Origin: Pseudogymnoascus verrucosus
Taxonomy: Eukaryota
Assembly (NCBI GenBank): GCA_001662655.1
Contig: KV460207.1
Length of the DNA: 64,000 nt
Direction: 5' to 3' (one strand)
How positions within the stretch are numbered: position 1 is the first letter of the stretch; every line of letters starts with the position of its first letter. Shown here in pieces: positions 2,112 to 38,182 of this stretch. The position numbers and the translations under genes are program-made. The notes beneath the pieces are model-generated. The model was not told the origin of the DNA. It ran no database searches and saw only the letters and a list, made by a program, of their open reading frames with translations.

Positions 2112-5036
2112 ATGGCACAAAGGCCGCCAGTCGTCGGTGGCAGTTCTGAGTGGACAGAGACACCACGCTCTGTTCCGTCGAGCGCACTGGATGGCTCAGT
2201 GACCCCAGGAATCGTCCCTGGGACATATTCGGCAGGCCGTAGGTCATCGTACTTCCCAGCTGTGGATAACAGCCGCTCAGAAACGCCGTCTCCATCGGCC
2301 CAGCTGGTTGATCCCTCATCTCAACCTTCAGCTCTCAAGGATGGAGTCCCGCCGAGAAAGGCCTCGCTCACGGACATCGACCCGAAGTCCGCCTTTCCCT
2401 CTCTCGAGCTTACCGGCTCGGTCATATCAGCGGCATTCTGTGTCCCTTATTCTCTAAAGTACCAAAAGGGTTCGGACTGGGTAAGTTGTTAATGATCACC
2501 ACATGCAGTAGCGGTAGACTAACTATACCAGGATCTGAAGCAACGCCGCGGCACTTCTGCCCTATTCGAGTCATTCGCATACCTCTCATCGAACGAAACA
2601 CCTTGGAACCACACGTTAGTTGGATGGACGGGGGAGATCGATCAATCTGACGAATTATCACCACCCACCACCCCTCCAGCAACAACAACCTCCACAAGGG
2701 TTCCCCCTCTGAATAAAGCATCTGCTCCCATACCTCTAGACGATAATAGGCCAGTTACTCCTCCCCCAACCGAAGGGTTGTGGATAGGCAAGGACGACCG
2801 AGCCCGGCTAGAGTGGCAACTTGCCCATGACAGCCGCGGAAAGACCGTACCAGTCTGGTTATATGATGACATAGAGGCATCTTCCGATGGGGACTTGCTC
2901 CTGAAGGACCAGCGCCGCTGGCGCCGCTTTGCTCAGAATGAGCTCTATCCTCTCTTCCACTACAAGCAACATGTCCCCTCAGATGGCAGGGCAGAACGCA
3001 AATCGTGGAAGGACTATCAACGATTGAACGAGAGATTTGCCGCCAAGATCCTCGAAATCTACAAGCCGGGAGATATCGTAATGATCCATGACTTCCACCT
3101 ACTTTTGGTGCCAGCTATTCTGCGCCGAAAGATTCCCCATATGCACATTTCATTCTTCTTGCACATTCCTTTCCCCAGTAGCGAGTTCCTGCGTTGCTTG
3201 CCGCGACGAAACGAGGTTCTTCTTGGTATGCTCGGCGCGAATATGCTCGGATTTCAGTCATTTAGCTACTCCAGACATTTCGTTTCTTGCTGCACCAGAG
3301 TCCTTGGTTTGCCATCAGATATCGCTGGCGTGGAGGCACATGGCTCTAAGGTGTCAGTGGGAGTATTCCCCATTGGCATTGACGCAGCTGGAGTCGAGAA
3401 ACTTGCATTTGGACGACCCGAAATTGAGAAGAACTTCTTGGGACTCAACACGCTGTACCAAGGAAAGAAGATCATCGTTGGCCGAGATCGCCTGGATAGC
3501 GTCCGAGGTGTTGCTCAGAAGCTTATGGCCTTTGAGCGGTTCCTCGAGGATTATCCTGAGTGGCGCGACCTGGTCGTTCTAATCCAAGTCACAAGCCCTA
3601 CCAGCATCGAAGAGGAGAGGCAAGACTCTGAAAACAAGGTCACGATCAAGGTTTCAGAGCTTGTGGCTAAGATTAACGGCCTCTATGGGTCTCTTGGCTT
3701 CTCTCCAGTTCAGCACTACCCTCAATATCTCTCGCAAGATGAGTACCTGGCGCTTCTCAGAGCGGCTGATATCGGCCTGATTACCAGTGTACGAGACGGT
3801 ATGAACACAACCAGCTTGGAATATGTCGTCTGTCAAAGGGACAACCATGGCCCTGTGATATTGTCTGAATTCTCCGGCACAGCGGGAAGTCTGAAAGAGG
3901 CGATCCATATCAACCCGTGGGATTTGACTGGAGTCGCTGACGCCATAAACAATGCGTTGACGATGTCACCTGAGAAGAAGAAGGAGACGCACGAAGACCT
4001 CTATAAGCACGTCACGACACATAATGTCCAGGCATGGACTACCGGCTACATCAAAAGGCTCCTTACTGTCCTCTCGTCGCACAGTACCTCTGTTACTACC
4101 CCCATTCTGGACAGAGAGAAGCTGCTGGCGCAGTTTACCAAGGCCAAAAAGCGACTGTTTATGATTGATTACGACGGCACCCTGACCCCCATTGTGAAGG
4201 ATCCGGCAGCAGCAACACCTAGCGAGCTGTTGATCAAAACCCTCCACACCTTAGCTGCCGATACCAAGAACGAGATCTGGATTATTAGTGGCAGAGACCA
4301 AGAGTTCTTGACTGAGCACCTTGGGAATATCCCTGGAGTCGGTTTCAGCGCTGAACATGGTAGCTTCATGCGTCCTCCGGGAAGCGACACCTGGGAGAAC
4401 TTGGCTGAGACGACGGATATGGGATGGCAGAAGGAAGTCATTGATGTTTTCCAGAAATATACCGAAAGGACACAAGGTGAGAAAGTCGGTCCAATGTCAT
4501 TACGTAACAGGTGCTAATCGTATACAGGTTCATTTATTGAGCGCAAGCGCTGTGCTCTAACATGGCATTACCGACGAGCAGACCAAGAGCTCGCCGCGTA
4601 CATGGCACGCGAATGTCAGACTGAGCTTGAACAAACCGTAGCCAAGAAATGGGATGTCGAAGTCATGACCGGCAAGATGAATCTCGAGGTTCGACCAACA
4701 TTCATCAACAAGGGCGAGATCGTCAAGCGCCTCATCTCCAGCCACACCACTAAGGATGGGGAGCCTACAGGTGGCGAGGCCCCAGAGTTTATGATCAGCC
4801 TGGGCGATGACTTCACAGATGAGGATATGTTCAGGGCACTTAATGCCAGTGGGGTGCCCGAGGAGACTATGTTCACAGTCACAGTCGGGTCAAGCAGCCG
4901 GATGACGCTGGCGCATTGGCATCTCCCCGAGCCCGCCGATGTGATTCACAGCCTGGCCACTCTTGCGGGCTTGAAGCAACCGAGTGAGCCACTTCCATGC
5001 AACACTCTGTGGAATACGCCCGCGGGCAAATTGTGA
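2112..5036 (+). CDS. TPS2: Trehalose-6-phosphate phosphatase (GT20-like domain + HAD phosphatase); exons about 2112-2480, 2532-4476, 4528-5036
   Basis: Motifs IHDFHLLLVP, GRDRLDSVRG, RDGMNTTSLEY, HAD motif DYDGTLTP and GDDFTDEDMF; GT-AG introns 2481-2531 and 4477-4527 join the frames. Confidence 0.93.
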
Positions 5037-5680: not shown

Positions 5681-7299
5681 ATGGCGGAGAATGCATGTGA
5701 AGCTAACGAGAAGGGGGTGCCTGCGATGGATGCGACGACGACGTCAAACTATGCGAATGATGCGCCAGATCTTTCTGATGGAGACGATGTTGCGCTCGCG
5801 ATCGTGGGGTTGCATGCCCAGCCCATCGATCCTTTGGTTGAAGCGCGAGTTGTTCGCAAGATTGATCTCTTCTTGATTCCCGCGATGATAGTGGGATATG
5901 GAATGGTCTATTATGACAAAGTAGCTACTATCCTCATCCCTTGCTGTTAATGTGACTGACGCTCTCCTAGGCCATCCTAGGCTCCGCCGTTCTCTTCGGC
6001 ATGACCGGCGACCTATCTCTCGCGGTCGTCAACAAGACAACTACCCCGCCAACAACTGATACCACCCGCCTCAGCTGGGCAACCTCCATCTTCTACTTCG
6101 GTATGCTCGCCGGCCTCTACCCCATGACCTTCGCACTCCAGCGCTTCTCCCTCAGCAAGGTCCTCGGTCCCATCGTCATCCTCTGGGCCCTAATCTGCAT
6201 GCTCACCGCAGCGGTGACATCCTTCAAAGGCCTTTTCGTCCAGCGCTTCTTCCTCGGCTTCGTCGAATCCGTCATTCCCACCGCCTTCATGACCATCGTC
6301 GCCGGGTACTACACGCAGCAAGAGCAGACGCTGCGCCAATCATGGTGGTTCTCCAGCACTGGCCTCTTCACCATCCTCGGCGGCGCAGTCAACTACGGCT
6401 TCGGCCAGATCACAGGCGGCGCGCTGAAGAGATGGCAGTACATCTATCTCCTCGCCGGCTGCCTCACCATCCTCTTCGGAATATGGTGTTTTTTCGTCCC
6501 CAGCAGCCCCGCGACGGCCTGGTTCCTCACCCCCGAGGAGAAGGTCGTAGCAACCGAGCGACTGCGACGCGGCCAGACTGGGCTACGCTGCGAGAAGTTC
6601 AAAGCGGGACAAATCCGCGAGGCCCTCCTCGATCCAAAGACCTACCTCATCTTCCTCATGATGGCCAGCGCATACACCGTCAACGGCGCCGTCTCCGGCT
6701 TCGGGCCCCTGATCGTCAGCACCTTCGGCTATTCGACGCTTCAGTCTATTCTTTTCCAATTCCCGCTCGGCGCGCTCTGTTTCGTTCTCATCTTGTTGAC
6801 GGGATGGCTCTCAGCGCGCTACCCGAATATCCGCATCATCCTGCTCGTGCTCTGTTGTTTCCCTGTCATCGCCGGCTGCGCGATGATTTGGAAGTCGGAG
6901 TGGTCGCACCACGCGGTGGCGCCGGTGGCGGGGTATAGCATCATCGGGTCGTTTGGGGCGGTGGTGAGTCTCGTGATTGCGATAGGGATGTCGAATGTTG
7001 CGGGGCATACGAAGAAGAGTTTCATGGCTGCGACGATCTTTGTGGCGTATTGTGTAGGCAATATTGTGGGGCCGCTGCTGATTAAGAGTCAGACGAAGAG
7101 TAGGCACTATCCGATGTTGTGGTTGGGCCTAATAATTTGCTACTGTATTACGATTGTGAGTAGTGTGGTGCTGTATTTTGTGCTGGGGAGGGAGAATAGG
7201 AGGAGGGACGCAATGGAGCTTGATGTCGTGGAGGGGGATAAGTTGGCTTTTAAGGATTTGACGGATGTGGAGAATCCGTACTTTAGGTATATGCTGTGA
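5681..7299 (+). CDS. MFS transporter, Dal5/allantoate permease (ACS) family; intron 5921-5970
   Basis: VVRKIDLFLIP...YYDK|AILG, RFFLGFVES, SNVAGHTKK, C-terminal AFKDLTDVENPYFRYML typical of the Dal5 family. Confidence 0.9.
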
Positions 7300-7958
7300 A
7301 GACGGCTTAATATTGATACTATCTATTTGCCCTATAAGGGATATAACTATGGACAGTATGATGAGGAAAATATAATATTGGTTATTAATGTTGGAGCTAT
7401 TATTAGAGAAATTATATAAATAAAACTCGTAAAATATATTGAAGATATATCGAATAATCAAAACACAACAGCGTATTATCATTTTTCAACTTATTACGAG
7501 GCTTTAAATTTACCATTAATCATATAAGATCTCAAATGAGACGTCTGAAGTATTTCAGATTCAGACAATGAAATAAGGAGTTGATAATTACCAGCACGTG
7601 CCCAGTCGTGACAATGACGAAATGTGCAAACACGACAAACAACCTAAGAATGAGGACTATTGCGTCGTTCGAAACAATAGTTTTAGCTTGCCCGCGGCTA
7701 ACATTCGCCGAACTGTCTAATTTCTTGGACAAATCTATAAGTTCCGAGATCCGCTATCTATTCGCATCTTTCCATAGCTCTACTGTTATATACAACAGGG
7801 CATTGAGCGATAGCGTTGCTGGCACCGAGCTCTCCGTCTGACACACCCAATCCAACCCCACCGAACAGCTCCGAATCTCCGCCTGCCATGAACGATGCGC
7901 CGCGCAGCCCCGCGATCCACTGCACGACACCCTACTAAACCACTCACGGATCTCAGAA

Positions 7959-10210
7959 ATGATCATCCGGAGTTTGCATAGAGCTACGTGCTCCATTGCA
8001 CGGGTGGAATTGCGCCAGAGGCCATGGCCTAGGCCGGAGACGCTGTCGAAGCGCGTCTTTACGAGCACGAGTCGAGTGTTCAAAGATGTCCCTACAACGA
8101 ATAAGACCCAGCCAACCCCCGATGGCAAGCAGACACCGCGCGCCGTTCCTACTGGGGCGAAACCCGACGCAGGTTCGAAGCCGCTCTTGCCAGCTACGCC
8201 GGCGAAGCGCAAAGACCCCCTCGCGCTCGAGGACAAGTCGAATAAGGAGCAGCGCCAGGCGGATTGGGCGATTATAAAAGAGATGTCACAGTATCTATGG
8301 CCCAAGCATGGCCTCAGCACAAAAGTCCGTGTCGGGCTCGCGCTCGGCCTGCTCGTTGGAGCCAAGGTCCTCAACGTCCAGGTGCCGTTCTACTTTAAGA
8401 ACATTGTGGACGCGATGAACGTTGACTTCATCGGCGTTGGCGGAACGGCGGCCACAGTGGCGGGATCGATGATTTTGGCGTATGGCCTGACCAGGTTCGG
8501 CGCCACGATCTTCCAGGAGCTGAGGAACGCGGTGTTTGCGAGCGTTGCGCAGAAGGCGATCCGCAAGGTCGCGGGAAATGTGTTTGACCATCTACTGCGG
8601 CTGGATCTGAATTTCCATCTCACGAAGCAGACGGGCGGGCTTACGAGGGCGATCGATCGCGGGACGAAGGGGATTAGCTTCCTCCTCACGTCGATGGTGT
8701 TCCATGTTATCCCTACTGCGCTGGAGATTAGCATGGTGTGCGGAATCCTGACGTGGCAGTATGGGGCCAAGTTTGCGGCTATCACGGCTGTGACGATGGT
8801 GGCATATACAGCGTTTACGATCTGGACTACGGCGTGGAGGACGAAGTTCAGGAGGCAGGCAAATGCAGCGGATAACAAGGCGTCCACGGTGGCGGTTGAC
8901 TCGCTCATCAACTATGAGGCTGTCAAGTACTTCAATAATGAGAAGTATGAAGTGGGGAGGTACGACAAGGCCCTGCTGGGCTACGAGAGGTCGTCTATCA
9001 AGGTCGCCACGTCTTTGGCATTCCTTAATGCGGGACAGAACTTGATTTTCTCAAGTGCCTTGACGGGGATGATGTATCTGGCTGCTAATGGTGTGGCCGA
9101 GGGAACGCTGACGGTTGGAGACCTGGTAATGGTTAACCAACTTGTGTTCCAGCTCTCTGTCCCATTGAACTTCCTCGGGTCAGTGTATCGCGAGCTCCGT
9201 CAGTCCCTGCTGGACATGGAAACGCTCTTCAACCTGCAGAAGGTCAATGTGGCCATCAAAGAGGTGCCCAACGCGAAGCCACTCGAGCTAACCGGCGGAG
9301 GAGAAATCGTCTTTGAAAACGTCACCTTCGCCTACAATAAAGAGCGCCCCATCCTGCAGAACCTCAATCTAACCATTCCCGCCGGCAAGAAGGTCGCCAT
9401 CGTCGGACCTAGCGGCTGCGGAAAGTCGACCCTCCTCAAGCTCCTCTTCCGCTTCTACGACGTCCAAGAAGGCCGCATCCTCATCGACGGCCAAGACATC
9501 CGCCATGTTAGCCTCGCCTCCCTCCGCAAAGCCATCGGCGTCGTCCCCCAAGATACCCCCCTCTTCAACGACACCATCGAGCACAACATCCGCTACGGTG
9601 ATCTGTCAGCACCCCCCGAGGCTGTCCGCGCCGCCGCCGCTCGCGCCCGCATCGATCACATCATCTCTGCGTTCCCGGATGGCTACCAGACCATGGTCGG
9701 TGAGCGCGGGATGATGATTTCGGGCGGAGAAAAGCAGCGTCTTGCGGTGTCAAGGCTGCTGTTGAAGGATCCGCCGCTGCTGTTCTTTGATGAGGCGACG
9801 TCGGCGCTGGATACGCATACGGAGCAGGCGCTGATGCAGAATATTAATGGGATTTTGAAGGAGAAGGCGAGGACGAGCGTGTTTGTGGCGCATCGGCTGA
9901 GGACGATCTATGATAGTGATAAGATCATCGTGCTGAAGGAGGGGAAGGTGGCGGAGAGTGGAAGCCACAGCGAGTTGATTGATACAGGGGGTGTGTATTC
10001 AGAGTTGTGGAGTGGTAAGTTCGGTTCGGTTTCATTTATTTTCTTGAGGCGTGTTTAGCTGGCCCGCCTGGTTGTACCAGTAAGAAGCCCTTGCTGACTG
10101 TTGACTTAGCCCAAGAAACCCTGTTCCAACATGGGACTAGTGAGCATGAGGTGGCTGTAGAGGATGTTCTAGAGAAAGCTGAAGGGGATGGGAGCGGTAA
10201 GGGTAGGTGA
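7959..10210 (+). CDS. ATM1: Mitochondrial ABC half-transporter, Fe-S export (ABCB7 type); intron 10015-10109
   Basis: Arg-rich presequence, [29 protein letters not shown], Walker [28 protein letters not shown]. Confidence 0.95.
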
Positions 10211-10987: not shown

Positions 10988-12764
10988 ATGGAAAACGACC
11001 CCCGACCTAAGATGGATGAGTTGCACCCTATGACGAAAGAAGGCATTGCTCCTGCTAGCTCCTGGCTACACGCGCCAAGCCAGCCCGAAAAGCTTAGCCA
11101 ATATCCTGGTACCCCACACTCTTCAACGTCTTTGTCTGATGATAAAGATGACCTGGATTTGCAGAAACTAGGCTACAAGTCAGTTCTTGCACGTGGCTGG
11201 GGCTCTTTTGATAACTTTGCATGCTCCTTCTCGGCGTTGTACTGCATAGGCGGCATCAGAGTATTATTTTACATTGCTCTCAGCAATGGTGGACCGGCTG
11301 CCTTGTATGTTAACATCTATCTTAACCCGCATAGTCTAGCATATACTGACAAATTTTGCAAAAAAAAGATGGAGCTCATGGATATCAGGAAGTATATTAT
11401 CGATTATTACTTCTGCCACGCTCGCGGAGGCTTGCTCTGCGTACCCAGCCGCTGGATCCATTTATTACTGGGCATTCCAGTCCTGGGGAGGTGGAAAGCT
11501 AGGGAGATTTATGTCTTTCATGGTAGCAGCTTGGACTCTTGTGGCTTGGACAGCCTTCCTTGCAGCGGACTCTTTCGGCGTTGCCAACTATCTAGTGTCT
11601 GAGGTGGTTGTGTTCAATCCTAATACGACCTTCCCCCATGACACGGCGGATGTGAAAGCAAGGGCGGTGGCATGGGCCTTCTCGCTACTTTTCCTAGCCA
11701 TTGCGACTTTGATGAACTTTCTACCTCCGCGCTCCTACGCATGGGTCTTCCGCGCCGGCGTTATGGTTATCGCGATTGATATTCTTCTCAACTTCATTTG
11801 GTTGCCAATTGGGGTCTCTAAGACATACGGGTTCCAGTCTGCCGAATTCGTCTTCACTTCAACATATAACGGGGGCCAGACCAGTCCCGGACTTAACTGG
11901 GTCTTGTCTTGGTTTCTTGTCTCTAGCTGCCTTGTCGGGGAAGATGCTTCAGGCCATGTCGCCGAAGAGACTGTCTCTGCGAAGAAAGCTGCTGCAAATG
12001 GGGTTTTTTGGGCTACAGTGGCATCGGCGATCTGCGGATTTCCAATCATTCTCGTCTTCCTTTTCTGCATGCCTCCAATCGATACGTTTTACGACACCGC
12101 GGCTCCTCAGCCATTCATCAATATGTATGCCCTGGCCTTAGGTCCGCGTGCACACGTTGTCGCCACGATTATCTCCATGATTGGGGCCATTCTCAATACG
12201 TCTATTTCCATGGTTGCAGCTTCCCGACTTGTTTTTGCAGTTGCTCGAGACTCCATCTTTCCGTTCAGCGAGTCGCTTTGCAGAGTCTCGAAAAGCAAGC
12301 AGCCACACAATGCTGTCATTTTCATCGCAACGATTGCAGCTCTCTTATTGTGCACCCAGCTGCCCTCGCAAGTGGCCTTCATGAGCTTGACTTCAACCTC
12401 GGCGGCAGGCTCCATTGCCGCGTATGGCCTTGTCGGCTTTGGGCGCGCCTTCATTACAAGGAAAACCTTCAAACCAAGCGTTTTCCATCTCGGCCGATTC
12501 GGAGTTATGATGGCTGTCGTCACATTCCTCTGGAACGGCTTTGCATTTGCTGTGCTTTGCTCCCCTCAGTATGGCAACAGCTCTATAAATGCAGATGCAA
12601 GCTTATTCAACTATGCCATTGTTATTATGGCTGGCGTTACAGTCATCGGCCTTGAAGAGTGGTGGCGAAAGTCCAGCCGCGTATGGTTTCACAATATCAA
12701 GGATATCGACACTACCTCGGACGTTGAGGTTCACGGAGAGGAACTTCGTTCCACTTCGTCATGA
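10988..12764 (+). CDS. APC-family amino acid/GABA/polyamine permease; intron 11305-11368
   Basis: LQKLGYKSVLARGW, LAEACSAYPAAGSIYYW (after splicing), DASGHVAEET, ASRLVFAVARD; many hydrophobic segments. Confidence 0.9.
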
Positions 12765-13861: not shown

Positions 13862-14480
13862 TTACTGCCCATTTTTTATCAAATCCGGAATCTTCTCAGC
13901 CAGGGCGTCTATAATAATTAGCAATACAAAACGTAGAGCGATACGAAGACAGGAAAACTCACAAATTGTGCTCCGAGGGTGTCCTGGGGGCAGGAACGGA
14001 AACGCACTTGCGTCAACGACACGCACTCCCTTAACACCATAGACCCGTGCATGGCTGTCAACAACAGCCATACTATCGGCCGATAGACCCATTTTACAGG
14101 TGGAGCTGGCATGCCACACGGCCTGCAGAGTGCCTTTGATAGCCTTTTTGATCCTATTAGCATTGTATATATAGCATAAGACGAACAGCATGGGACTGTA
14201 CCTCCAAAATCTGAGCGTCGGTCTGGACCGATGCGCCGGGGTAGTATTCATCTCCGATGATGATCTTCTGCATAAAAGAACTGGCGCATGCTTGACGAAC
14301 ACGTTTATAAGAAGCGACGGCAACTTGCTGGTCGGTGGGGGATTGGAGGGCTGGGATGTTGATGATGGGAAGGTCTTGAGTGTCTGTAGATGTGAGGGTA
14401 ATGTTGCCCCGAGACAGAGGAGCAACTAGGGTAGCCAGAATAGTAGCATATTGGTACCCATCGTTTGGTTCTGAGATGAT
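13862..14480 (-). pseudogene. 5'-truncated GMC oxidoreductase (C-terminal part only)
   Basis: Spliced frame DGYQYATILATLVAPLSRGNITL...EYYPGASVQTDAQILE|AIKGTLQAVWHASSTCKMG...VVDSHARVYGVKGVRVVDASAFPFLPPGHP; no N-terminal FAD-binding region fits before the next gene. Confidence 0.8.
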
Positions 14481-15161
14481 GTGAGTTTTAGTACTACGTG
14501 GAGGAAAACGAGGACCTCATTTTCCTTACCCCGTACCCCGCACGCTCAAGCTCATGTGAAAATCTACTGGCAGCCCCAACACATCGAAGCCTATGTGAAA
14601 ATCCACAAGCCACTACCCAACCCCTGGATTGGGCCTCGGGTCCGTCCGAATCAACGCCATGAACTAGAAGCAGGGCGGCAAGCGCTTATAGGAGATAATG
14701 GAAAATATACGTACCAAATCGACGTGCTCAGATTCCGTATCAAATCTGGCTCGAATCGACATCTGGGCCACGTAGTCAAGCGTCCCAAACCCACCATGAG
14801 AGTAACATGGGCACGTGACTTCACTACCACTTTACGGGTAAATTTGGCCCCATACTGGGACGGAACAATAAGAGGTAAACCTTGGCAATTGCGCCAACGA
14901 CAACGATATAATAACGAATAACAACCGACCACCTTAACATCGCCGTCCAATGATGGGAATCAAATAAATTGCATTTTGGGCTCTCGATATGTTTGTCATG
15001 TCTCAACAGACGCATTCTTGTCTCCACGAGTAGATCCAAGCTTCTAGTTCAGCACCGGGAATTCGATAGGTGTTGACGAACGAAGTCGATATTTTTATCT
15101 ATCGATTTGTTCTGATACTTAGGCCCTTGGTTGTTTAGTTGCCTGTTTGAGGCGGCTCATC

Positions 15162-17432
15162 ATGGAGTCAACGACACCAGACGATGGGGACTCGAGACGC
15201 AAGCGTCGGAGGCAATTTAGTGTCCGAGCCAGCGATGCTGCCACCCCTCCGGGGGAATTCGGCTCTATGAGGCCTGGAGTTGCGAAAGGTTCTTCGAGCT
15301 TTGTGGGTAGCGGAAGTGGAATCTACTTTGTGCGAGCTGTACAATCTGCTTTTGCCAGGAACTACAGCCAGAGCAGCCACGCAATCGACGATGATCTCGT
15401 GCCCGGGGAGGATGATCACCTTCACGTTCAAAACCCGTCAGGTTCACTCTGGAACTCGGAAGAAGTCTGTTTTATTCCTGCAAGTCAGCCTATAGTCTCG
15501 GTATCCTTTGACGATTTGGTGCGATGGAGTCAATCGTTCTTCAATAACTGGCATCCGCTGTTCCCGTTTCTACATGCACCAAGCATTTTGGGACTCTTCG
15601 AAAGAATTGCAACCCATGGCGTTCAGAGTTTGTGCACTGTGGAAGCAATTACTGTACGCTCAGTGTTATCTATGTCGGTTGCAGACCGACGCCAAATGCC
15701 CAGGGATGATCTGACACTGATTCCTTCAAACCTGGTTTTTAGCACCATCGATGAGGCGATTTCCTCTCTCACACCTGTAATTATGCAACCTTCTACACTG
15801 TCCGGACTTCAAGCTCTTGTGGCGATTCAGGTGTTCCTGATTTCTATGCTGCGTCTCAATGCTGCGTCGAGAATTGGTGGTCTCATCGTACGCATTACTT
15901 TTCACCTCGGTCTGCATAGATGCCCTTCGAGGTTCAAACAATTCACTCTGGCTGATGCAGATATGCGTCGAAGGCTATTTTGGGCGATATATAGCCTTGA
16001 GAGATATCTCTCCCAATCACTGGGGCTGCCTCTGGATTTAAAAGACGATGATGTCGATGTCTGCTACCCTGACAATGAACTTCATGACATCCAAGTCAAC
16101 GAGGAGGGTAATGGCCAGCCACTTCACGGTGAGAAACTGAATTTTCAGGCTTATTACGTTCCGTAGCTGATTTATCCCAACTAGACCCGCGTCTTCTGCT
16201 TCTCCCATCTTTTCTAGCTCGGCACGGCAAAATCAAGGGCTTGATTTTAGAACTTAGGCACAAGTGTGCGAACAACAGGACTGCTAGTCCCGATGAAGTC
16301 AGTTATGTGGATGCTGAAATATCGAAATGGTGGAATGAAGCACAAGATCTTCTCGAACCTGATTACATTAATGATGCGGCTGGAGAAGATCCAGACGGCG
16401 GACAGGCCCCATGCCTGTTAAAGGAGACACACAAACTCCTTGTCATTGTTCAGAAGCACGAATCCAGAATACTTCTGAATCGGCCTGTCATAACATCCGG
16501 CTACGATACCTCCCTATTCGCGGCAGCAATGCAAAAGTGTATTGGAGCGTCAAAACAAATTGTTTCGAAGGTATACCTTCACCTGCACGAAGGGATGAAC
16601 CAGGTAGGATCGCGTGATGGTAAAATTCAAAATCCACTTTTTTGGCCTGGCTTCACGTGGTGTATTTGGATGAGGTAGGGTAGCGTGCTCCCTACTATTG
16701 GCGTCTATCTAACTGAAAATCCGGGACAGCGGCTTAATACTTCTCTACGCAGCCTCTGAAGGGTATTATTCTATTGAGATAGCTCAACGGTAAGTGCAGG
16801 AGACCAAGTCATGACGAGCATACTAACTGTCTTAAAGTGAGGCTGGTCGATGTATAAAGATATTAGAAACGCTCTCATTGCGAGGGAATTTCTGGCCAGG
16901 AGCTTGCGCATCCGCTCTTATAGATTTACAAAAAGCTCTGGGTAACAAACTCTCCAATGGTACCTTCGAGCAACACGCTGGTTTACAGTCTCGAACAAAA
17001 GAGATGCGGACGTCAACAGATGCACTCAACTCAATCCATCGGCAGAAGGTACGCCTGCGGAATAGTGAGACTGGTACAGCACAAGACACCGGAGGAGCTT
17101 CAGTTTCGCCCCGTGCCCCAAATCCTGATTTTCAGCCACATGGCTCACCGAGAGCTTACCAGGGAAATGGAGAGACGCCAAGTACGAACAATTCGATACC
17201 GCCCCATTTGAGGAGCCCTCAGGGCGCCATGGCATTCTCCTTTCAGCAAAACGAAACGTCTACCATGGAGCCAAACAGCGCACCTGGTGGCGTGGCTTGG
17301 CCTATGTTAAGCGGACCAACTTACCAGATGGGTGACCAGTTTAACGGACTTGACGATATATTTCAGCTCATGGATGCTTCTTATCAAATTAGTGAGCAGA
17401 TGTACGAGCCTGGAGATATGGCACAGTTTTAG
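15162..17432 (+). CDS. Fungal-specific transcription factor domain (Fungal_trans/MHR) protein with no visible Zn2Cys6; introns near 16129-16184, 16675-16728, 16790-16837
   Basis: FVGSGSGIYF, WHPLFPFLH, LGLHRCP, RRRLFWAIYSLERYLSQSLGLP. Confidence 0.85.
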
Positions 17433-17808
17433 AAATATTTATACTCTTATTTACATAGGAAGGCTATTCAGGACGCATGTAATAATTACACTCGATGAAT
17501 TAAAGGCTATTTGATTATAAGAAGAACGTCGGCAGAACCTGAACGCTTACTTAAGCTCTATGGTGATACATAAAGAGAACATTTTGTTATGTTAAGATGC
17601 ACGAGATTTGTTTTCCTTATATAATGGGTGGATCGGATCAATAGACGACATCAGCAACAATATGGATCACTTTATTCCATAACCATGTTCATATTTATTC
17701 TATTCATATTTTTTCATTTGCGTATACCTTCTCATGGTACTTTGAACTCTGCAGGCTTCCTGACAATAAACCTAATACCCTGATCAAGAATCTATGAATA
17801 AAATAATC

Positions 17809-19118
17809 TTAGTTCGACCCTTCGAGATGCTCAGCCTTTGTCTTCCCTAATCTATTCTGAATTTCTTCGCACACAGCATTTGTCACCTCGGCCGTGGTCG
17901 CCGTCCCTCCGAGATCTTTAGTCATGATTCCCTTTTCGCAAACGGCTTCGACGATATCGAGGAGTTGATCTGCTGCCTCCTTCTCGCCTAGCCAGGTCAA
18001 CATCTCGCAAGCAGTCCAGAATGTCGCAACTGGATTTGCTGTCACCAAGTCAGTAACCATACAATATTTTACGTAGAAGGAGGAATACCGATTCCCATTC
18101 CAGTGATATCGAACGCAGAGCCATGGATAGGCTCGAACATGGAAGGGTTCTTTCGTGTGGGATCGAGATTGCTGGTGGGTGCGATGCCAATGGAACCAGC
18201 CAACGCCGCAGCAAGATCCGAAAGAATATCCGCGTGCTAATTGTATCGTTAGAACCTGCCCCAGTATGCATTCTCGTAAACCAATAACCTACCAAGTTTG
18301 TAGCAACAATGGTATCAAGCGTCTCCGGCTTTAGTACCATCCTCGTAGTCATTGCATCCACCAACATCTTATCAACCAGCACATCTGGAAAGTCCTTTGC
18401 CACATCTGATGCGACTTCGTCCCACATGACCATGCCATTCCTCTGCGCATTACTCTTTGTAACCACAGTGATATGCTTCTTCGGCCTGTTCTTGGCTGTT
18501 TCGAATGCAAATCGCATTATTCTCTCCACAGCGTGGCGTGTGAAAATCGAGACTTCAGTAGCAGTCTCCCATGGTTCACCGCGATGAGAGCGGCCGCCGT
18601 GACCGGCATATTCCCCTTCGCTATTCTCGCGGATTATCACCCAGTCCAGCTCGCCATTCTTGCAGTTTCGAAGAGGCGATTGAGTGCCTCGGAAGACCTT
18701 GGTGGGACGCACGTTCGCGTATTGTTGGAGGGGTTGGCAGATTGCGAGGCGGAGTTGCCATAGGGAGATGTGGTCTGGGACGTCTATGGAATCACATCAG
18801 CATATGTGATTTGGTTTGCTTTAAATATCTGGAAATTTGTGCTTAGTTTTACATACCTGGGGCACCAACAGCACCGAAGAGAATAGCATCAAACGTTTTT
18901 AACGTTGTCAGGGCATCGTCTGGCATGTATTTCCCCGTAGCTTTGTAAGTGTCGCTGCTCCAGTCGAAGTTCGTGAAATCCAGGTCAAAAGTGTTTAATG
19001 TCTCGGCAAACTTCTTCAACACGGTGACACCGGCGTCGATTACTTCAGGGCCAATTCCATCTGCTGGTATTGAAGCAATTCGATAGCTTGGGCGAGGATC
19101 AGCAAGAGAGGGACTCAT
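17809..19118 (-). CDS. Tartrate dehydrogenase/decarboxylase (D-malate dehydrogenase; beta-decarboxylating dehydrogenase family), 3 introns
   Basis: [69 protein letters not shown]; matches TtuC/YeaU-type enzymes rather than IPMDH. Confidence 0.9.
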
Positions 19119-19325
19119 TTTGACAATGGTGATATGATATGATATGGTCGAGTTGTGAAACTGAATCGATGTGCACGACGATTATGGGAAGGTAAATTAT
19201 TAGGAAAGAAGCAGAATAAAGAGATACAAATACCTGAATATCTAGTGGAGATTGATACACAGGATCAGATAGGTTCCATCTTGGTGGGGTTGGGGGTTGG
19301 CTGGGTTTGGCGGGGCTGTGAATCA

Positions 19326-19345
19326 CCCGGGGATCGTTTCTCCGG
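19326..19345 (+). promoter_or_regulatory. Shared cluster motif CCCGG-gga-TCGTTTCTCCGG in the dehydrogenase/kinase bidirectional promoter
   Basis: Read directly; recurs at 20784, 38183 and 38219. Confidence 0.6.
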
Positions 19346-19487
19346 CTGAGATGTGGGGTCGAAAACCAACTTGCCATCTTCACAAGAGAAGAAGGCGGCG
19401 AAAAACACACAGATAATAGTCCACATAACATAGCCACAATGTCAGACCTGGCCTAAAGACTCTTCACAATCCGTATATACAATCAAT

Positions 19488-20579
19488 ATGAGTCGAGACA
19501 GCCGAGCTCAGCTCGTTGTTGAAAGCGTACTGCCGTTCATTGAGGCCCACCGAAAGCTTGAGCATCAAGGCAATGCTAAAAAACCATTTATTTTAGGTGT
19601 TACAGGATTACAAGGTACGTGTAATTGTTTAAACTAAGTAAATATGAGTTTAACGAGAATTTATATTGTAGGATCAGGAAAATCACATTTGGCATCAGCA
19701 CTCGTCGTCGCTCTCTCCAAGGACCATAATTATAACACCATCGAGGTATCACTCGACGACTTCTACCTACGACATGACGAACAAATATCCCTTCGTACAC
19801 AAAATCCTTCCAACAACTTGTTTAAAGCTCGCGGTCAGCCTGGAACACATGATCCTGTCTTGTTGAAATCATTCTTCAGCCAGTTCTCAGATCCATTAGC
19901 GAAACATGTTTGGATTCCTTCATTCGACAAAGGCCTCTTCCAAGGGGAGGGAGACAGACTTCCACTATCGGAATGGAAAACCATTGATTGCCATTGTCCG
20001 ATCGATGTGGTGATTTTCGAAGGGTGGTGTGTTGGCTTCCAACCATGTCCTGACATCGAGGTGGAGAGGAAGAGAGTAGAAGCTTTACAGATTCGACATT
20101 TGAACGAACCCGAAAAGAGCATTATGGATTTGCCCCGGAGTCAATTTTGCACAACTACTTTGGGGGACCATAAGCTTGTGGATTTGCTCCATGTAAATGA
20201 CTGTCTACGCAGATACTCTGAAGATTTCATGGGTCCGCAGCATTTTGATTTTATGGTGCATCTTGATACCAATGACTTGGGTAACGTGTATACATGGAGG
20301 ATACAGCAGGAGCATGCACTCCATAGGAGGAAAGGTACTGGAATGACTGATGAGGCGGTAGTCAAATTCGGTACTGTTTTTTTCATTTGCCCCGTCGTGG
20401 ATAATTAAACTAATCTGATGAACGTTTCAGTACAGATATATATGCCAGCGTATGAATTATATTTGGACGGTCTACGATCTGGATTCTTTAGGGAGACTGG
20501 AAGTTTTATTAGGACAAAGGGACAATTGCAACTAGTCATGGACGTTGAGCGGAATGTTGTAGAATCAAAACTATTCTGA
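19488..20579 (+). CDS. P-loop kinase, GLYK/Tda10 (Ygr205w)-type D-glycerate 3-kinase; introns about 19615-19671 and 20372-20430
   Basis: PFILGVTGLQG|SGKS Walker A, SLDDFYL, RGQPGTHD, FDKGLFQGEGDR, VVIFEGWCVGF, WRIQQEH, GMTDEAV, YMPAYELY. Confidence 0.85.
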
Positions 20580-20783
20580 ATGAGCAATAAAATAATACGC
20601 GGCCTGTTTTCAATATGATCGATACTGTAGACTCGAAAGGAATCTAGCAAGAGAGTTGATATGACGGATTTATCGACCATAGTCCAACTTCACCCGTTCC
20701 TGTCAGCCAAGGCCCGGACCTGTGTGCGTCGTGCGGGGTTGCGGGGTACGACCTGCTCTGCTTCTCCCTCGTGGTATAAGCGG

Positions 20784-20803
20784 CCCGGCTTTCGTTTCTC
20801 CAG
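20784..20803 (+). promoter_or_regulatory. Shared cluster motif CCCGG-ctt-TCGTTTCTCCAG upstream of the MFS gene, flanked by CreA-like SYGGRG sites
   Basis: Read directly; GCGGGG/CCCCGC nearby at about 20733, 20741 and 20841. Confidence 0.55.
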
Positions 20804-21079
20804 ACCCACAACTACCCCATAGTCTTACCATACTATGCAGCCCCCGCTGGCGAACGTTTCCCCGCAGAGTCGTACCCCGTGGGAAAAAACCTGGGGAAAG
20901 CTTACAGCGAGGTAAGTGTCCCTGAATATGGGATGGCAGGCAGTTGTTTTCTATAAAACCTATGATGTCTCTCGCCAGTAAATATTAGACATGGCAATTG
21001 TCTGCTCTTGGACTACTATCTGCGAAATATCTTACATCACGTCAAATCTATCCGGATAGTGCAATATTAAGTCGATATC

Positions 21080-22694
21080 ATGAGTGAAAAACGCCCTCAA
21101 ACGCCCGATGACAAGGTCAATACGGCATCACACCTAGAGGACCCCGAGAGCCTCATGAAGGAACCTTTAGAAGATGTCGACTATTCGGGGGCCGTCGCAA
21201 AATCCGACCCAGCAGAGATTGCCTTGGTTCGAAAGCTCGATATGAGGATTATGCCTACTCTTTGGGCCATGTACTTTATGAACTATCTTGACAGGAACGC
21301 CATAGCGAACGCTCGGCTGAACGACCTTGAAAAAGACTTGGGTTTAGAGGGTACACAATACAATACATGTATTTCCATTCTCTTTGTGGGGCAAGTACAC
21401 CAAAATTTGATTTAGTACAGCTGACGACTGACTATTTAATAGGTATCTCTTAATGCAAATCCCCTCAAACATGTTGATGTCGTCAAGGAAAATCCGGCCC
21501 TCGATATACATGGCGGTTTGTATGGCTGGATGGGCCATTGTCGCGGCTTTAACAGCGCTGGTCAAGAATTATACTGGGCTCGTACTTGTCCGATTTTTCC
21601 TCGGGGTCCTTGAAGCCCCATTCTGTTTGTCTCCCATTGCTATTCCTATCGAGATCGGTCGGTGCTAACGATCCTTGAGACCCTGGTGCGTTATACTTGC
21701 TATCAGCATTTTACACCCGAAAGGAGGTTGCGACGAGAATAGCGATTTTATACTCCGGCAACATATTCGCGACCTCTTTCGCAGGTCTCATCGCAGCCGC
21801 AACGTTTGCTTCCATTGATGGCGCTCACGGATTCAAAGGCTGGCAATGGTAGGTTACTTTGAAACCAAATTCGAAAACTGACTAACCTCACCAAGGCTTT
21901 TTATTATCGAGGGAGTGGTGACTTTTGCCGTAGCCATTGCTGCAGCATACCTTCTTCCTGACTTCCCGCTCACTACGAAATGGCTCACTGAAGAAGAGCG
22001 AATTCTTGCTGACGCCAGAATCAAACGCGACACTGTCGGTCTAACGCCCGATAAAGGCGCGAGAGAGGGTTTCAAACAGGCTATTAGGGACCCTAGGCTA
22101 TACCTCCTATGCTTCATGCAAAACATGCATCTCTCCGCCTGTTCATTCAATAATTTCTTCCCTACTGTTGTTGGTTCTCTTGGGTATGACCGAACTATCA
22201 CTTTGGCTCTCACATGCCCGCCATATCTTGTGTCTGGATTTTTTGGCTACGCTATCGGAATCACTTCGGGGAAGTACAACGAGAGAACCTGGCATATCAC
22301 TGGGTGCATGGGAGCCGCTCTCGTTGGGTTTGTCATCTCCTGCCTAACGCTTAACACGCCTGCTCGTTACATATCTTGCTTCCTCTTTGCCAGCGGTGCC
22401 TATGCCGTCAATTCGGTTATTCTGGGATGGGTTTCGGCGACGTTGGGACAGACAACCGAGAAAAAAGCCGTGTCGCTCAGTATCGTCAATGTGGTTGCCA
22501 ATGCTTCCTATATCTACACGGCATATTTATACCCAAAATCTGATGGACCGAAGTACCTTACGGCTATGGGATCTAATGCTGGATTCGCCTTTGCTACAAT
22601 TGCTAGTGCGTGGGCTTTCAGGTTTTGGCTTATGAGGACCAATACCAAGATTAGACGTAGTGGGGATGAGTCGAAGGTATTTTACGCTTACTAG
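21080..22694 (+). CDS. MFS transporter, ACS family (TtuB/Tna1-like); introns 21391-21442 (GC-AG), 21625-21679, 21849-21895
   Basis: LVRKLDMRIMP, YLDRNAIANARL, YLLMQIPSN, RFFLGVLEAPF|YPG, GWQW|LFIIEG. Confidence 0.9.
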
Positions 22695-22925: not shown

Positions 22926-25900
22926 TTAATTATGATAATTTTCATCATCCCAGACCATTGTAAGCAGCTGGACCATCTCTCTTCGCCCTTGACCTGAGGT
23001 GATATCGAATTTCTTATACGCCTTATAACATGTCGACATATCGGCTACTACGTGGTCGATACATGCAACTTTCCCAACCTCGCCTCCATTGCTGACACTT
23101 TCGTAATACGAGTCGGCCTTTGATCCTGAACCGTCACCACCATAGGGAGAAAACGAACAGTCAGAACCTCCTGAGAAATCGGGCAAGTCAAAGGAACTAG
23201 GAGGAAAGTGATATGTGGTATCTTCCGGGCCTTTTATCCCAGTAGACTGTATCCATGATGATTTGCCCCACACTGTCTCGCAAGTAGAAGAGCCGTCTGC
23301 AACGAACCAGTAGTATTGAGCGTGGTCGAAGGAGTCGCATTCTATAGAGCCACAATAATATTGCGCGAAATAGCACAAATTTAGAGTAGTGGTTGTTGGA
23401 GGTGGAGGGGAAGTCGTTGTTGCTGGAGGACGATTGGTTGAAGTTTTTGGCGGGCTGTTGGTGCAGCTGGCAGGCAGTAATGATGTTGTAGTTGGACAGT
23501 CCGCTACATCGACATATTGATAGATCCACTTGCAATTTACCAGGCTGCTTGTAACGCATTGCGGAGCGAGTCGTCGGTGGTACTTAGAGCAGTCATAGAA
23601 CCCCAGCGCGTCGCATCCCACTCGTTCTGTAAACTGACGATTAAGCTCGACGCGGCTTTCAAGGCAGCATCATCGGCAAGTTGAAAACTGGAATCAACGA
23701 AAGCTGCCATCTCTTCGGGATATGACACGCTCGTGGTAACAGTTGTGGTGGTAGTACTATCTGTCACGGTACACGCCTCTGTGATTTCACAGTGTGTTCT
23801 CGTTGTCGTTGACCACCCTGTTGTACCGGCTGGTACAAAACTACTCACAACCATAGTGCACAAACTCGCCGTCTCCAAAGACGTACAGTCGTTTGACTTG
23901 TTCTGCTCGACGTCGCCACATTTGCCATTGGGGCACATGCTGCAGTCGCCGCTAGGGCACCCCCCATTGCCACATGAGCCTGTGGTGCAACCTAACCCAC
24001 CACACTTGCTAAGAGGGCACCCACTAGAGCAGAGACCTAGGGCGCATCCGGGTCCGCCTCCACACCCAAACAGTCCACATCCACCCCCACAACCCCAGAT
24101 GCCGCAGCCGCCGCCGCAACCGAATATCCTACACCCAGACGAGCACCCAAACAGCCCACAGTTCTTATGACCGTAGTTTGAAGAACAAGTGGCGGTCGGC
24201 TTAGCACTTTTATATATGACTGTCGAAATGCCAGTGGGTGGTGGGGTGCTTACTGACACAGTAGCTTGCGGCTGGATCGTGACAACATGAGAAGTGGAGT
24301 AAAACACAGGAATGATAACTGCTGTGGATGAGGTTGACATTGCCCCTGATGTAGTACTACTACCTGCGGCCCCTGTGGCCCCCGTATTGAATGGGTTAGA
24401 AGGCATTGGAATCAAACTTGGAGGGAATACAGCCTCGCCGATTCCTAGTGTAATGCTGAATGGCTAAGGCATCACACTCTGAACAGCTGTGAAAGTCGCC
24501 GTTAGATCGTCGCCTTCGCTAATAAATACTGGCTACCACTTAATTTCGGTCGTCGTGACGATAGACACCGAGATAGTGGTTGTGGTGGTCACAATTTTTG
24601 TTCCTGATGAGACAAGCAGGGTTGTAGTGAGTGCAGGCCAATTGATAGTTGTTGTGAAACCCAGTGGGAACGGCGGCAGTATAAGCGTGCATGGCGGTAT
24701 ACAATTAACCTCTGGATTTGAACTAGACCAGATAGACGGTGGCACGTATATATCCTTACCAACGCTACTCCCATCCTCAAAGGTTTGGAGGTCGACCGCC
24801 CAATCTGTAGTCCCTCTGAAATTATAGGCTTGGAATATCTTTGTCCTTATGACTTTGTTATCGTCGGTTATATAAGCAATCCACTGGGTTTCGTCGTACA
24901 CTACGATGTCAGAGTAACTATCATCCCGATAAGACTGGACACTTCTAGTTCCCGCAATAATGGCTGCAATCTCGGCGTTTGCAATATAGCCTGGTGTTTG
25001 CGTGCAAGCCCCGCCATAAGCGCCAGACACCGGTCCTGTGTATGTACAATCACTACTAGTACAACCAGGCGTAGTCATCTAGAAAGAGCGGCCATAACTG
25101 GTAACGCCTACAACAACCTTGTCTGAAGGCACGCCAGCTTTAGTAACTATAGAGAGCGCACTGAGCGTCTCAGTTAAGTTAACATGAGAGCGGAGGCAGT
25201 TACCCCCTAAACAGCCATCGTCTGAATAAGGATGTCCATAATCCCACTAGCCATGAAGAACACAGGTCATAAAGATAATATAGTCGACAACATGACCGAT
25301 TGCTTGAATTGGAAAACCCTTGAGGTACCACTGAAAAGAAATAGTTAGCGCTGCTTAATGAAAATGCTTAATCTAGGAATCCACATACAAATCCTGCCGG
25401 GGCTGCTATAGAAAGCGAAGTACCATCAGGTAAACTGTTCCGTAGTTCACTAAGGAATAGGTAATAATTAGAGGCATCCTCAGCGGTTCCGTGGGGGATG
25501 CCTTCCATATCGGGCTCAGCTGGATACTCCCAGTCAAAATCAACACCGTCTAGATTATACTTCTTAACGAAGGCAACGACGTTAGCGATGAATGTATCCC
25601 GATTTGGCTCTTCCACAACTTGACGGAAAATAAAATAGGTACTAGGGTCGGTAGAGAAGGTCCATCCACCTATAGAAAGAAGTCAGCGGGAGAGCCATTA
25701 CACACTGTATAAGTCGGTCATTCTCAACATACCAAAAGAAAGAATCTTCTTGAAACCCGTCATCTGCACAAAAGCTAAGAATTGATCTTCGATGGAAGTA
25801 ATATCTACATTCCAGTCGAGGGTTATAGTCGCAAATGCAAGATGTATGTGTGTGTGTATCCGGTAGTGTCGAAATCCGTGACTTTCATATTTAAGCATGG

Positions 25901-36691: not shown

Positions 36692-37937
36692 TTATAATCT
36701 ATCAAATTTAGCCATCATGGTGAGCATATCCAACAACCTAGATGAATACGCCCACTCATTATCGTACCATGCTAAGATTTTGAAGAACTTCCCTTCGTTA
36801 GTTCCAGTTAAATAGTTTCATTATAGGCACATTACCTTGGGGTTCAGCTCAACGCAAGCTTTCGCATCCACTACGCAGCTATGAGGATTGCCCTGAAAAT
36901 CACAGCTGACTAGCTCACTGTGCTCGACTGTTAACACGCCTTGCAGAGGACCCATTGAAGCCAGTTCCAGTTGTGTCAGGATCTCCGCTAGCGAAGTTTC
37001 GTGTTCGAAATTTATTGTCAGGTCAACAAGCGACACATTGTTGCTATAGACGTGTTAGCAACATTCACGACAGTAAGACCTGTATGCTGACGTTGGAACT
37101 CGGAGAGAGATGCCAGTCATCTTCCCAGCCAGTTCTGGAAGCACAGTCGAAACTGCCTTTGCTGCACCAGTTGTGGTCGGAATAACATTTCCCAGCACGG
37201 CCCGCCCGGCTCGACGATCTCTTTTGCTGTATCCATCCAGTACAGGTTGTGATCTTGTAGAGGCATGGACTGTGGTCATAAGGGCCTGAACAATACCAAA
37301 TTTGTCGTTCAAAGTTTTTGCCAGAGGGGCAAGACAATTAGTAGTACAGCTCGCGCATGATACTATACTTGGAGGGTTTATGATGGGATACTGTGAGGTG
37401 TTGACACCGTAGACGAATGTAGGTGCGTCCTTGCTCGGGGCAGAGATAAGTACCCTCTTTGCCCCGGCATGCTCGATGTGAAGACTGGCTAGTGATGAAG
37501 TTGTAAATTTGCCTGTGCTTTCGATGATATACTCCGCTCCTGAAATCGTCCAGTCCAAAAACTTGGGATCTCGTTCCGAAGTCAAATGCACATGTTCTCC
37601 ACAGACAGACAGGGTGTTTGCGTCTACAGCAAAAACAGCGTTTTGTTTGACATCCACACTCCGGCTTAGAGGACCATGTGTAGAATCAAAGAGGATTTGA
37701 TGAATGATATCGGCTATCGAGGCGCATGTGTGGTTGATTGCCACTATGCGTATATCTTTTCGAGATAGAGAGTTTCTGAATGCGACGCGGCCTTCACAGA
37801 TGTTAGATTGACATAACCGTCAGAGAGGTTTTACGTGGCGACTGACCAATTCTTCCCCATCCATTGATCCCTACTTTGATAATCTCTTGCGGAACTAATG
37901 GTAAGAGAGATTCCCTTCCGTCCAAAGTCGCGGGCAT
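36692..37937 (-). CDS. Divergent glyceraldehyde-3-phosphate dehydrogenase (GDP1-like, possibly NADP-accepting), 3 introns
   Basis: KVGINGMGRIG, FDSTHG, IESTGKF, ASCTTNCLAP, TTGAAKAV, LAWYDNEW. Confidence 0.92.
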
Positions 37938-38182
37938 AGTGAATTAATTCACAGAAAATATTTAAAATTCAATAATGGGTGGAGTGAAAGGTAAGTTATG
38001 TTCCCACGATCTATATTGAAGTAAACACCGGACTCTACTTATCTCAACCCCCGGGCATAGACCATCGTGATTAATTGATACATTGTGTTTTTTGATAATT
38101 GTGAGCCTGTGCTGTGAGTGAGGCCGCCTTCTGTCTCCAAATTTACCCCGCACTAGAATCTGGCCAGGTTTGCTTAATAATC

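Follow-up and report, generated by a model that had tools for sequence, protein, structure and literature searches.

A probable tartrate-utilisation gene cluster in Pseudogymnoascus verrucosus, with counterparts across the Pezizomycotina

Can a fungus take up and degrade tartrate through a compact group of genes that follows the logic of a bacterial operon? The question is raised by a 64,000-nucleotide stretch of contig KV460207.1 (assembly GCA_001662655.1) of Pseudogymnoascus verrucosus, here called the window, in which an earlier note made from the letters of the DNA alone had picked out, side by side, a regulator, a tartrate dehydrogenase/decarboxylase (TDH), a P-loop kinase and a transporter of the major facilitator superfamily (MFS), as a probable counterpart of the bacterial ttu operon. 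Pseudogymnoascus belongs to the Leotiomycetes, order Thelebolales. Here we observed four intact genes at 15162-22694, and we suggest, with a probability of about 0.65, that they constitute a conserved cluster of fungal primary metabolism for the use of tartrate (meso-tartrate, L-tartrate or both) as a carbon source.

In the pathway that we propose, an ACS-type MFS protein would import the acid, an NAD-dependent TDH would convert it towards D-glycerate by the chemistry of the Pseudomonas enzyme, and a class III kinase would, judging from its family, turn D-glycerate into 3-phosphoglycerate, which would enter glycolysis or gluconeogenesis; a protein with a Fungal_trans domain would presumably serve as the pathway-specific regulator. 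Pseudomonas TDH forms D-glycerate from meso-tartrate directly, by decarboxylation; L-tartrate is taken to oxaloglycolate, after which a decarboxylation and a reduction are needed. In the fungus, too, meso-tartrate would be decarboxylated directly to D-glycerate and L-tartrate would pass through oxaloglycolate, and the decarboxylation and reduction of the latter would have to be encoded elsewhere.

Families of the four products

The spliced gene models, built from open reading frames (ORFs) and hand-placed splice sites, run from the ATG of the regulator at 15162 to the end of the MFS stop codon at 22694 (Table 1). The TDH model is identical to a protein annotated in P. verrucosus (376/376; P0121), and the kinase and MFS models match database proteins of equal length at 319/324 (P0001) and 464/486 positions (P0256). 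All four genes are present and intact, they are adjacent, as the earlier note had it, and the head-to-head arrangement of TDH and kinase that it had put at about 370 bp comes to 369 bp between the divergent start codons.

The identity of the dehydrogenase is the firmest of the four. Scored at full length on P0121, it reaches 531.1 bits against TIGR02089, the NCBIfam equivalog model for 'tartrate dehydrogenase', above the cut-off of 470.4. The sister models stay under their own cut-offs (PRK03437, isopropylmalate dehydrogenase [IPMDH], 342.3 against 393; leuB, 237.1 against 353.2), no homoisocitrate or isocitrate dehydrogenase model of NCBIfam reaches its cut-off on the full-length protein, and the ranking is unchanged when the four exons are scanned one by one. 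Among solved structures the Pseudomonas TDH 3flk matches best (9.3e-97; the best IPMDH reaches 7.6e-70), and the alignment with it keeps the catalytic blocks, DILSD among them; we take the kept motifs to supply the Tyr and Lys of catalysis and the Asp that binds the metal. The enzyme groups with the bacterial TDHs and apart from IPMDH and homoisocitrate dehydrogenase, and the family named for it beforehand stands. Its central exon is 82-93% identical among the Pezizomycotina matches listed from other genera. Enzymes of the TIGR02089 type are multifunctional, and D-malate is also oxidised.

For the kinase, the assignment comes from solved relatives. Residues 1-230 of the 232-aa exon match the D-glycerate 3-kinase 6ckg (1.5e-32), followed by 1odf, which is YGR205W (7.3e-29), and by the GLYK structure 7xpc (6e-23), so that the GLYK/Ygr205w type proposed in the earlier note is borne out by the best solved relatives. 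The P-loop, GLQGSGKS in the spliced protein, is encoded across the first intron. Many homologues carry the source names D-glycerate 3-kinase or TDA10, and identity falls to 46-60% outside Pseudogymnoascus. By sequence, P-loop and conserved blocks over the full length, the protein belongs to one family with the class III GLYK enzymes of plants, cyanobacteria and yeast (6ckg, 7xpc and 1odf, the last being YGR205W/TDA10). In plants the role of the enzyme lies in photorespiration, whereas the fungal gene sits within a catabolic cluster beside TDH. To our knowledge, the GLYK/TDA10 proteins of fungi have been assigned no physiological role, and the function of the yeast kinase is still listed as unknown. 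According to the accessible part of a study of these enzymes, class III glycerate kinases, those of plants among them, form 3-phosphoglycerate and are present in yeast; that text names no physiological role for the fungal proteins (PMC10970406).

The transporter matches MFS_1 (E=2.6e-37). Its best NCBIfam model is TIGR00893 (2A0114, the ACS subfamily) at 184.7 bits, which points to the ACS family, but the score lies under the cut-off of 395. A close relative bears the JGI source name 'ACS family, DAL5 transporter family', and orthologues go by the source names of transporters for vitamin H, pantothenate or tartrate. In the first intron of the MFS gene (21391-21442) the splice border is GC-AG (GCAAGT...TAATAG) in place of GT-AG, and the spliced length agrees with that of database orthologues.

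The regulator carries a Fungal_trans domain (PF04082, E=5e-26) and a basic RRKRRR stretch near its N-terminus; a Pfam scan found no Zn2Cys6 cluster (PF00172) in it, nor in any of the nine homologues scanned (9/9), all of which have Fungal_trans only. These include proteins from Mollisia, Coleophoma, Penicillium roqueforti, Conoideocrella, Corynespora and Botrytis, and identity to homologues outside Pseudogymnoascus drops to 44-63%, so that the parts of the cluster differ markedly in conservation, TDH being the most alike. A 5' exon encoding the zinc cluster was considered and rejected: no Cys-rich ORF lies upstream, and a missed exon is unlikely because the homologues align from their own N-termini (residue 1-25). 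The combination of Fungal_trans without Zn2Cys6 thus looks like a family trait, of what appears to be a distinct and uncharacterised family of regulators.

Gene order in other fungi and in bacteria

Are these genes neighbours elsewhere? Adjacency in other fungi was read from consecutive accession numbers or locus tags of the homologues. TDH and kinase are consecutive in nine of the 10 other Leotiomycete genomes in which both were identified: Pseudogymnoascus VKM F-4519, Cadophora DSE1049, M221 and MPI-SDFR-AT-0126, C. gregata and its f. sp. sojae, Rhexocercosporidium, and two of Leptodontidium. The MFS gene, whose orthologues share 66-85% identity in the last exon, lies at most two gene numbers from TDH or kinase in 11 of the 15 genomes with comparable identifiers (Pseudogymnoascus VKM F-4513, Cadophora M221, Coleophoma crateriformis, Phlyctema vagabunda, Neoarthrinium moseri, Microdochium bolleyi, Ilyonectria destructans, Plectosphaerella cucumerina, P. 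plurivora, Coniosporium tulheliwenetii and Phaeomoniella chlamydospora). These genomes belong to four classes, namely Leotiomycetes, Sordariomycetes, one Dothideomycete and one Eurotiomycete. In some of them one gene intervenes between MFS and TDH or kinase. In Bisporella and Microdochium trichocladiopsis the members of the MFS pair are on a contig of the same length. All five of the same-contig pairs selected for look-up fall within two gene numbers. In Coleophoma crateriformis a regulator homologue takes part as well: BP5796_09815 (52% identity) adjoins the MFS gene BP5796_09816, two genes from the TDH gene BP5796_09818. Because it recurs in so many other fungal genomes, the adjacency goes beyond chance, and the conserved linkage on which the earlier note had staked its reading is found for TDH with kinase and for the MFS gene.

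A literature search, with subscription journals outside its coverage, found no described fungal pathway or cluster for tartrate and, among the listed papers that mention the enzyme, no characterisation of a fungal TDH, which agrees with the statement of the earlier note that it knew of no characterised fungal version. In its accessible part, one paper reports a lineage-specific retention of families annotated with 'tartrate dehydrogenase activity' (PMC3087541). The nearest fungal likeness that we found is an uncharacterised 'MGC-like' cluster of Cryptococcus, CNAG_04468-04473, which likewise combines a putative TDH, an MFS protein and a fungal transcription factor; it differs in having a transaminase, a HAD protein, an FAD oxidoreductase and a Zn2Cys6 regulator, and, as far as the accessible text lists its genes, no glycerate kinase (PMC8022950).

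The natural yardstick lies in bacteria. The ttuABCDE operon of Agrobacterium (Allorhizobium) vitis was reportedly described in its composition by Crouzet and Otten in 1995. With it the fungal locus has in common a regulator, an MFS importer, a TDH of the TtuC type and a glycerate kinase, of which the TDH is truly homologous and the transporter belongs to the same superfamily. The remaining parts differ: the fungal regulator is a Fungal_trans protein and not a LysR protein (TtuA), the kinase is a class III GLYK/TDA10 protein of the 3-phosphoglycerate-forming kind and not a TtuD-type DUF4147/MOFRL protein, and instead of an operon there are separate, intron-containing genes on both strands with their own promoters, two of them divergent. 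A pyruvate kinase domain (TtuE) was not found in the 13 ORF pieces of the cluster or in 56 other long ORFs (to 43.6 kb). That A. vitis carries tartrate-metabolising genes is also stated in the accessible part of a later paper (PMC7970118).

Used as a query against bacterial and archaeal genomes, the fungal TDH picked out 80 loci. The best bacterial TDHs are 64-70% identical to the fungal one and come from Thalassospira, Acidobacteria, Acetobacteraceae and Burkholderiales. Translated searches (tblastn) with the fungal kinase and regulator found neither at any of the loci (0/80 each), and a fungal-like MFS gene occurs at one of the 80 (28% identity; L020, with the order LysR-MFS-TDH). In their place stand other families: LysR regulators at 18 of the 80 loci, a regulator at 18 and a carboxylate transporter at 22 of the 37 loci whose TDH is at least 59% identical, and a DUF4147/MOFRL kinase at 17 of the 80, or at 16 of those 37 within 7 kb, mostly in Thalassospira and so not independent of one another. 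The best NCBIfam match of the bacterial kinase is glycerate 2-kinase, under its cut-off. The earlier suggestion that the fungal kinase belongs to a family unlike that of TtuD is borne out by these counts.

The loci that hold the closest TDHs outside fungi (L001-L034; Thalassospira, other Proteobacteria and Acidobacteria) often have a glycerate-kinase-like partner nearby, as the fungal cluster does; unlike it, they mostly use TTT (TctABC) or TRAP transporters. A Pfam scan of 73 ORFs from 13 loci gave finer detail. One locus of Thalassospira mesophila (L004) has the order LysR-TctC-TctA/B-TDH-DUF4147/MOFRL-second TDH-LysR, and its kinase is flanked by two TDH paralogues, each of which passes the TIGR02089 cut-off (L004:6995-10589). 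In an Acetobacteraceae metagenome-assembled genome (L026:6228-11877), TDH is surrounded by an RraA-like gene (aldolase/oxaloacetate-decarboxylase family), a TRAP transporter and a 2-hydroxyacid dehydrogenase that resembles glyoxylate/hydroxypyruvate reductases in NCBIfam; the RraA-like and reductase-like genes are candidates for the steps from oxaloglycolate to glycerate.

Where, then, did the fungal dehydrogenase come from? In a quick maximum-likelihood tree of 101 sequences (21 fungal and 80 bacterial, sampled by similarity to the fungal query and rooted at the midpoint), the fungal TDHs come out as a single clade (SH-aLRT 100), nested in a clade (100) of bacterial TDHs with 59-70% identity. 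That enclosing clade includes the Thalassospira TDHs of LysR-TctCAB-TDH-DUF4147/MOFRL operons, and a LeuB-like actinobacterial group of about 40% identity lies across a branch of 1.33. This topology suggests an old transfer of TDH from a bacterium to a fungus. On these comparisons, we regard the fungal cluster as an analogue of the bacterial loci by non-orthologous replacement, because at the closest bacterial TDH loci the regulators are of the LysR type, the transporters are TTT, TRAP or MFS proteins and the kinases are TtuD-type, with no GLYK-type kinase among them. Taken together as one proposition, a cluster widespread in the Pezizomycotina and built from a TDH of bacterial ancestry and a class III kinase of eukaryotic/cyanobacterial type, under a family of regulators that lacks a zinc cluster, is a possibility that we advance tentatively, at somewhat less than even odds.

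Botrytis, the substrate and the rival readings

Published expression data from Botrytis bear indirectly on the substrate. In an experiment described in the accessible part of a published study, Botrytis cinerea was sprayed on Physcomitrium on BCDAT agar, which contains 5 mM ammonium tartrate and 10 mM KNO3, and was compared with mycelium grown on potato dextrose agar (PMC7824268). Among the genes up on moss only, four were very highly expressed at both 8 and 24 h post inoculation, and these encode D-malate dehydrogenase, glyceraldehyde-3-phosphate dehydrogenase (GAPDH), D-glycerate 3-kinase and an MFS transporter; on three angiosperms, according to the same text, the four were not so induced. 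At every time point the genes for nitrate and nitrite reductase were up too, and the authors, in the text accessible, draw no link to the medium (PMC7824268). We read the four-gene response as one to components of the medium, because the agar supplies KNO3 and the two kinds of reductase gene rose along with the four; this suggests that tartrate and nitrate from the agar induced the Botrytis genes. Older work, as cited in the accessible part of another paper, had Botrytis degrading L-tartrate in grape must, and a transcriptome cited there has a Botrytis TDH transcript rising in noble rot (PMC7970118).

Several observations weigh against a tartrate cluster. The induced Botrytis genes are only putative counterparts, in orthology and in adjacency, of the genes of the cluster. 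For the L-tartrate route the cluster supplies neither an oxaloglycolate decarboxylase nor a hydroxypyruvate reductase, and we infer the substrate, the direction of flux, the specificity of transport and the regulation. No Pfam or NCBIfam model scores above cut-off on the kinase, which has weak generic nucleotide-kinase matches only, and no model bearing the GLYK family name matched in the Pfam-A and NCBIfam scans. The kinase may also be the sole housekeeping GLYK/TDA10 of the species, because no second GLYK copy is evident for the clustered genera among the 120 best kinase matches. The regulator, in which no DNA-binding domain is recognisable, is the weakest link of the cluster: conserved linkage holds for TDH, kinase and MFS across four classes, and for the regulator it extends to Coleophoma, the one other genus where it is confirmed, with the Corynespora regulator homologue and MFS gene on different contigs. 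Even among the other three genes linkage has gaps. The Bisporella PMI_857 TDH is unlinked, on another contig; MFS and kinase are 88 locus tags apart in Penicillium argentinense; and the genes lie on different contigs in Fusarium lateritium, Aspergillus fijiensis and Zopfia rhizophila. Such unlinked cases may involve a paralogous MFS gene or a different assembly. The linked genomes are, moreover, not phylogenetically independent, nine of them being Leotiomycetes.

Could the same genes serve another acid? With a DmlA-type enzyme leading to pyruvate, an MFS protein importing D-malate and a kinase that is a general GLYK/TDA10 linked for some other reason, the cluster would act on D-malate or a further 2-hydroxy-dicarboxylate, a reading that we consider unlikely. 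The breadth of the TIGR02089 family fits it, as does the want of a second GLYK among the 120 best kinase matches. So do names: UniRef calls the fungal orthologues 'D-malate dehydrogenase (decarboxylating)', and D-malate dehydrogenase is also the name used in the accessible part of the Botrytis paper (PMC7824268). What tells against D-malate above all is the kinase, since the conversion of D-malate to pyruvate needs no glycerate kinase, and a kinase partner therefore favours glycerate as the product, and with it tartrate over D-malate. It adjoins TDH in nine of 10 Leotiomycetes and apparently lies between or beside MFS and TDH elsewhere, which is hard to account for without a common pathway, and the bacterial relatives of TDH pair independently with a glycerate kinase of another family (17 of 80 loci). 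With the Botrytis medium as described (PMC7824268), the sole candidate inducer that we see is tartrate and not D-malate.

We also doubt, to a similar degree, that the cluster handles some other plant- or ascorbate-derived hydroxy acid ending in glycerate, or salvages glycerate or hydroxypyruvate, with tartrate as a side substrate. The various names of the transporter orthologues (vitamin H, pantothenate, tartrate) and the uncharacterised family of the regulator would leave room for such an acid, and a TDH cluster of different make-up exists in Cryptococcus, as described in the accessible part of PMC8022950. Set against this, the fungal TDH scores above the TDH equivalog cut-off and shares 64-70% identity with bacterial enzymes from ttu-like operons, and the identity of its central exon across the listed other genera (82-93%) argues for a conserved, specific function. 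That the four genes are neighbours by chance, with no common function, is very improbable: linkage is indeed lost in some Eurotiales, Fusarium lateritium and Zopfia, but the adjacency recurs in four classes of the Pezizomycotina, and every one of the same-contig pairs looked up falls within two gene numbers. The use of tartrate, through glycerate, remains our preferred reading.

Locus, upstream regions and implications

Table 1. Coordinates of the features of the putative tartrate cluster in the window (amino acid lengths are those of the spliced models)
Feature	Position	Strand	Exons and remarks
Putative pathway regulator	15162-17432	+	Exons 15162-16128, 16185-16674, 16730-16789, 16838-17432; 703 aa
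Tartrate dehydrogenase/decarboxylase (TDH; TtuC/DmlA family)	17809-19118	-	Exons 19118-18857, 18783-18293, 18236-18089, 18038-17809; 376 aa
TDH-kinase divergent intergenic region	19119-19487		369 bp between start codons
Class III (GLYK/TDA10-type) P-loop kinase, putative D-glycerate 3-kinase	19488-20579	+	Exons 19488-19614, 19672-20370, 20431-20579; 324 aa
Region 5' of MFS gene	20580-21079		Repeats and SYGGRG-type motifs
ACS/Dal5-type MFS transporter, putative tartrate (hydroxy-dicarboxylate) importer	21080-22694	+	Exons 21080-21390, 21443-21624, 21680-21848, 21896-22694; 486 aa

The divergent intergenic region is presumed to be a bidirectional promoter common to TDH and kinase. It holds six SYGGRG-type motifs (16 per kb), and the region 5' of the MFS gene holds another six (12 per kb), against a mean of 4.2 per kb in the window; the enrichment is three- to fourfold in a tiny sample. 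We take the consensus to be CreA-like, and the density of the motifs hints at carbon catabolite repression. Those upstream of the MFS gene include a tandem TGCGGGGT TGCGGGGT (20732-20747), and an 11-nt inverted repeat lies in the same region (20742-20752 / 20869-20879). A promoter motif common to the TDH-kinase and MFS upstream regions was sought and set aside, as the one 10-mer found, with about 0.35 expected by chance, is not significant.

Around the cluster, a GMC oxidoreductase at 13865-14516 (-) was considered as a further member and rejected: it has the C-terminal domain only, split over two frames, and is a probable relic because there is no room for an N-terminal domain before the regulator gene. 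The genes upstream look ordinary, and encode a trehalose-phosphate synthase/phosphatase fusion (2523-5033), an MFS protein (5971-7296), an ABC transporter (7842-10055) and an amino-acid permease (11340-12761). Directly 3' of the cluster's MFS gene, ORFs at 22929-25078 (-) encode Cys/Gly/Thr-rich proteins with no Pfam match, which are possibly secreted or part of the cell wall; these ORFs show no sign of cluster membership. About 14 kb downstream of the cluster, at 36692-37943 (-), there is a divergent second GAPDH gene, which keeps the SCTTNCLAP catalytic block and matches the best solved GAPDH at 8e-64 over 254 aa. A GAPDH is also among the four Botrytis genes co-induced on the tartrate medium, and the GAPDH paralogue of the window may belong to the same regulon.

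Grapes and some other plants are rich in tartrate, which is also standard in fungal and moss media. If our reading is correct, the cluster would give the GLYK/TDA10 kinases of fungi their first physiological role, and it would explain the loss of tartaric acid in Botrytis-infected grapes. It offers a likely explanation of the puzzling 'moss-specific' response of Botrytis: ammonium tartrate, routinely used as a nitrogen source in such media, would not be inert; it would switch on a regulon and so contaminate transcriptomes taken as 'infection-specific'. The three-step route is open to direct testing, the fungal TDA10/GLYK kinase gains a candidate role, and in the cluster we see what would be the logic of a bacterial operon rebuilt in eukaryotes from non-orthologous parts.

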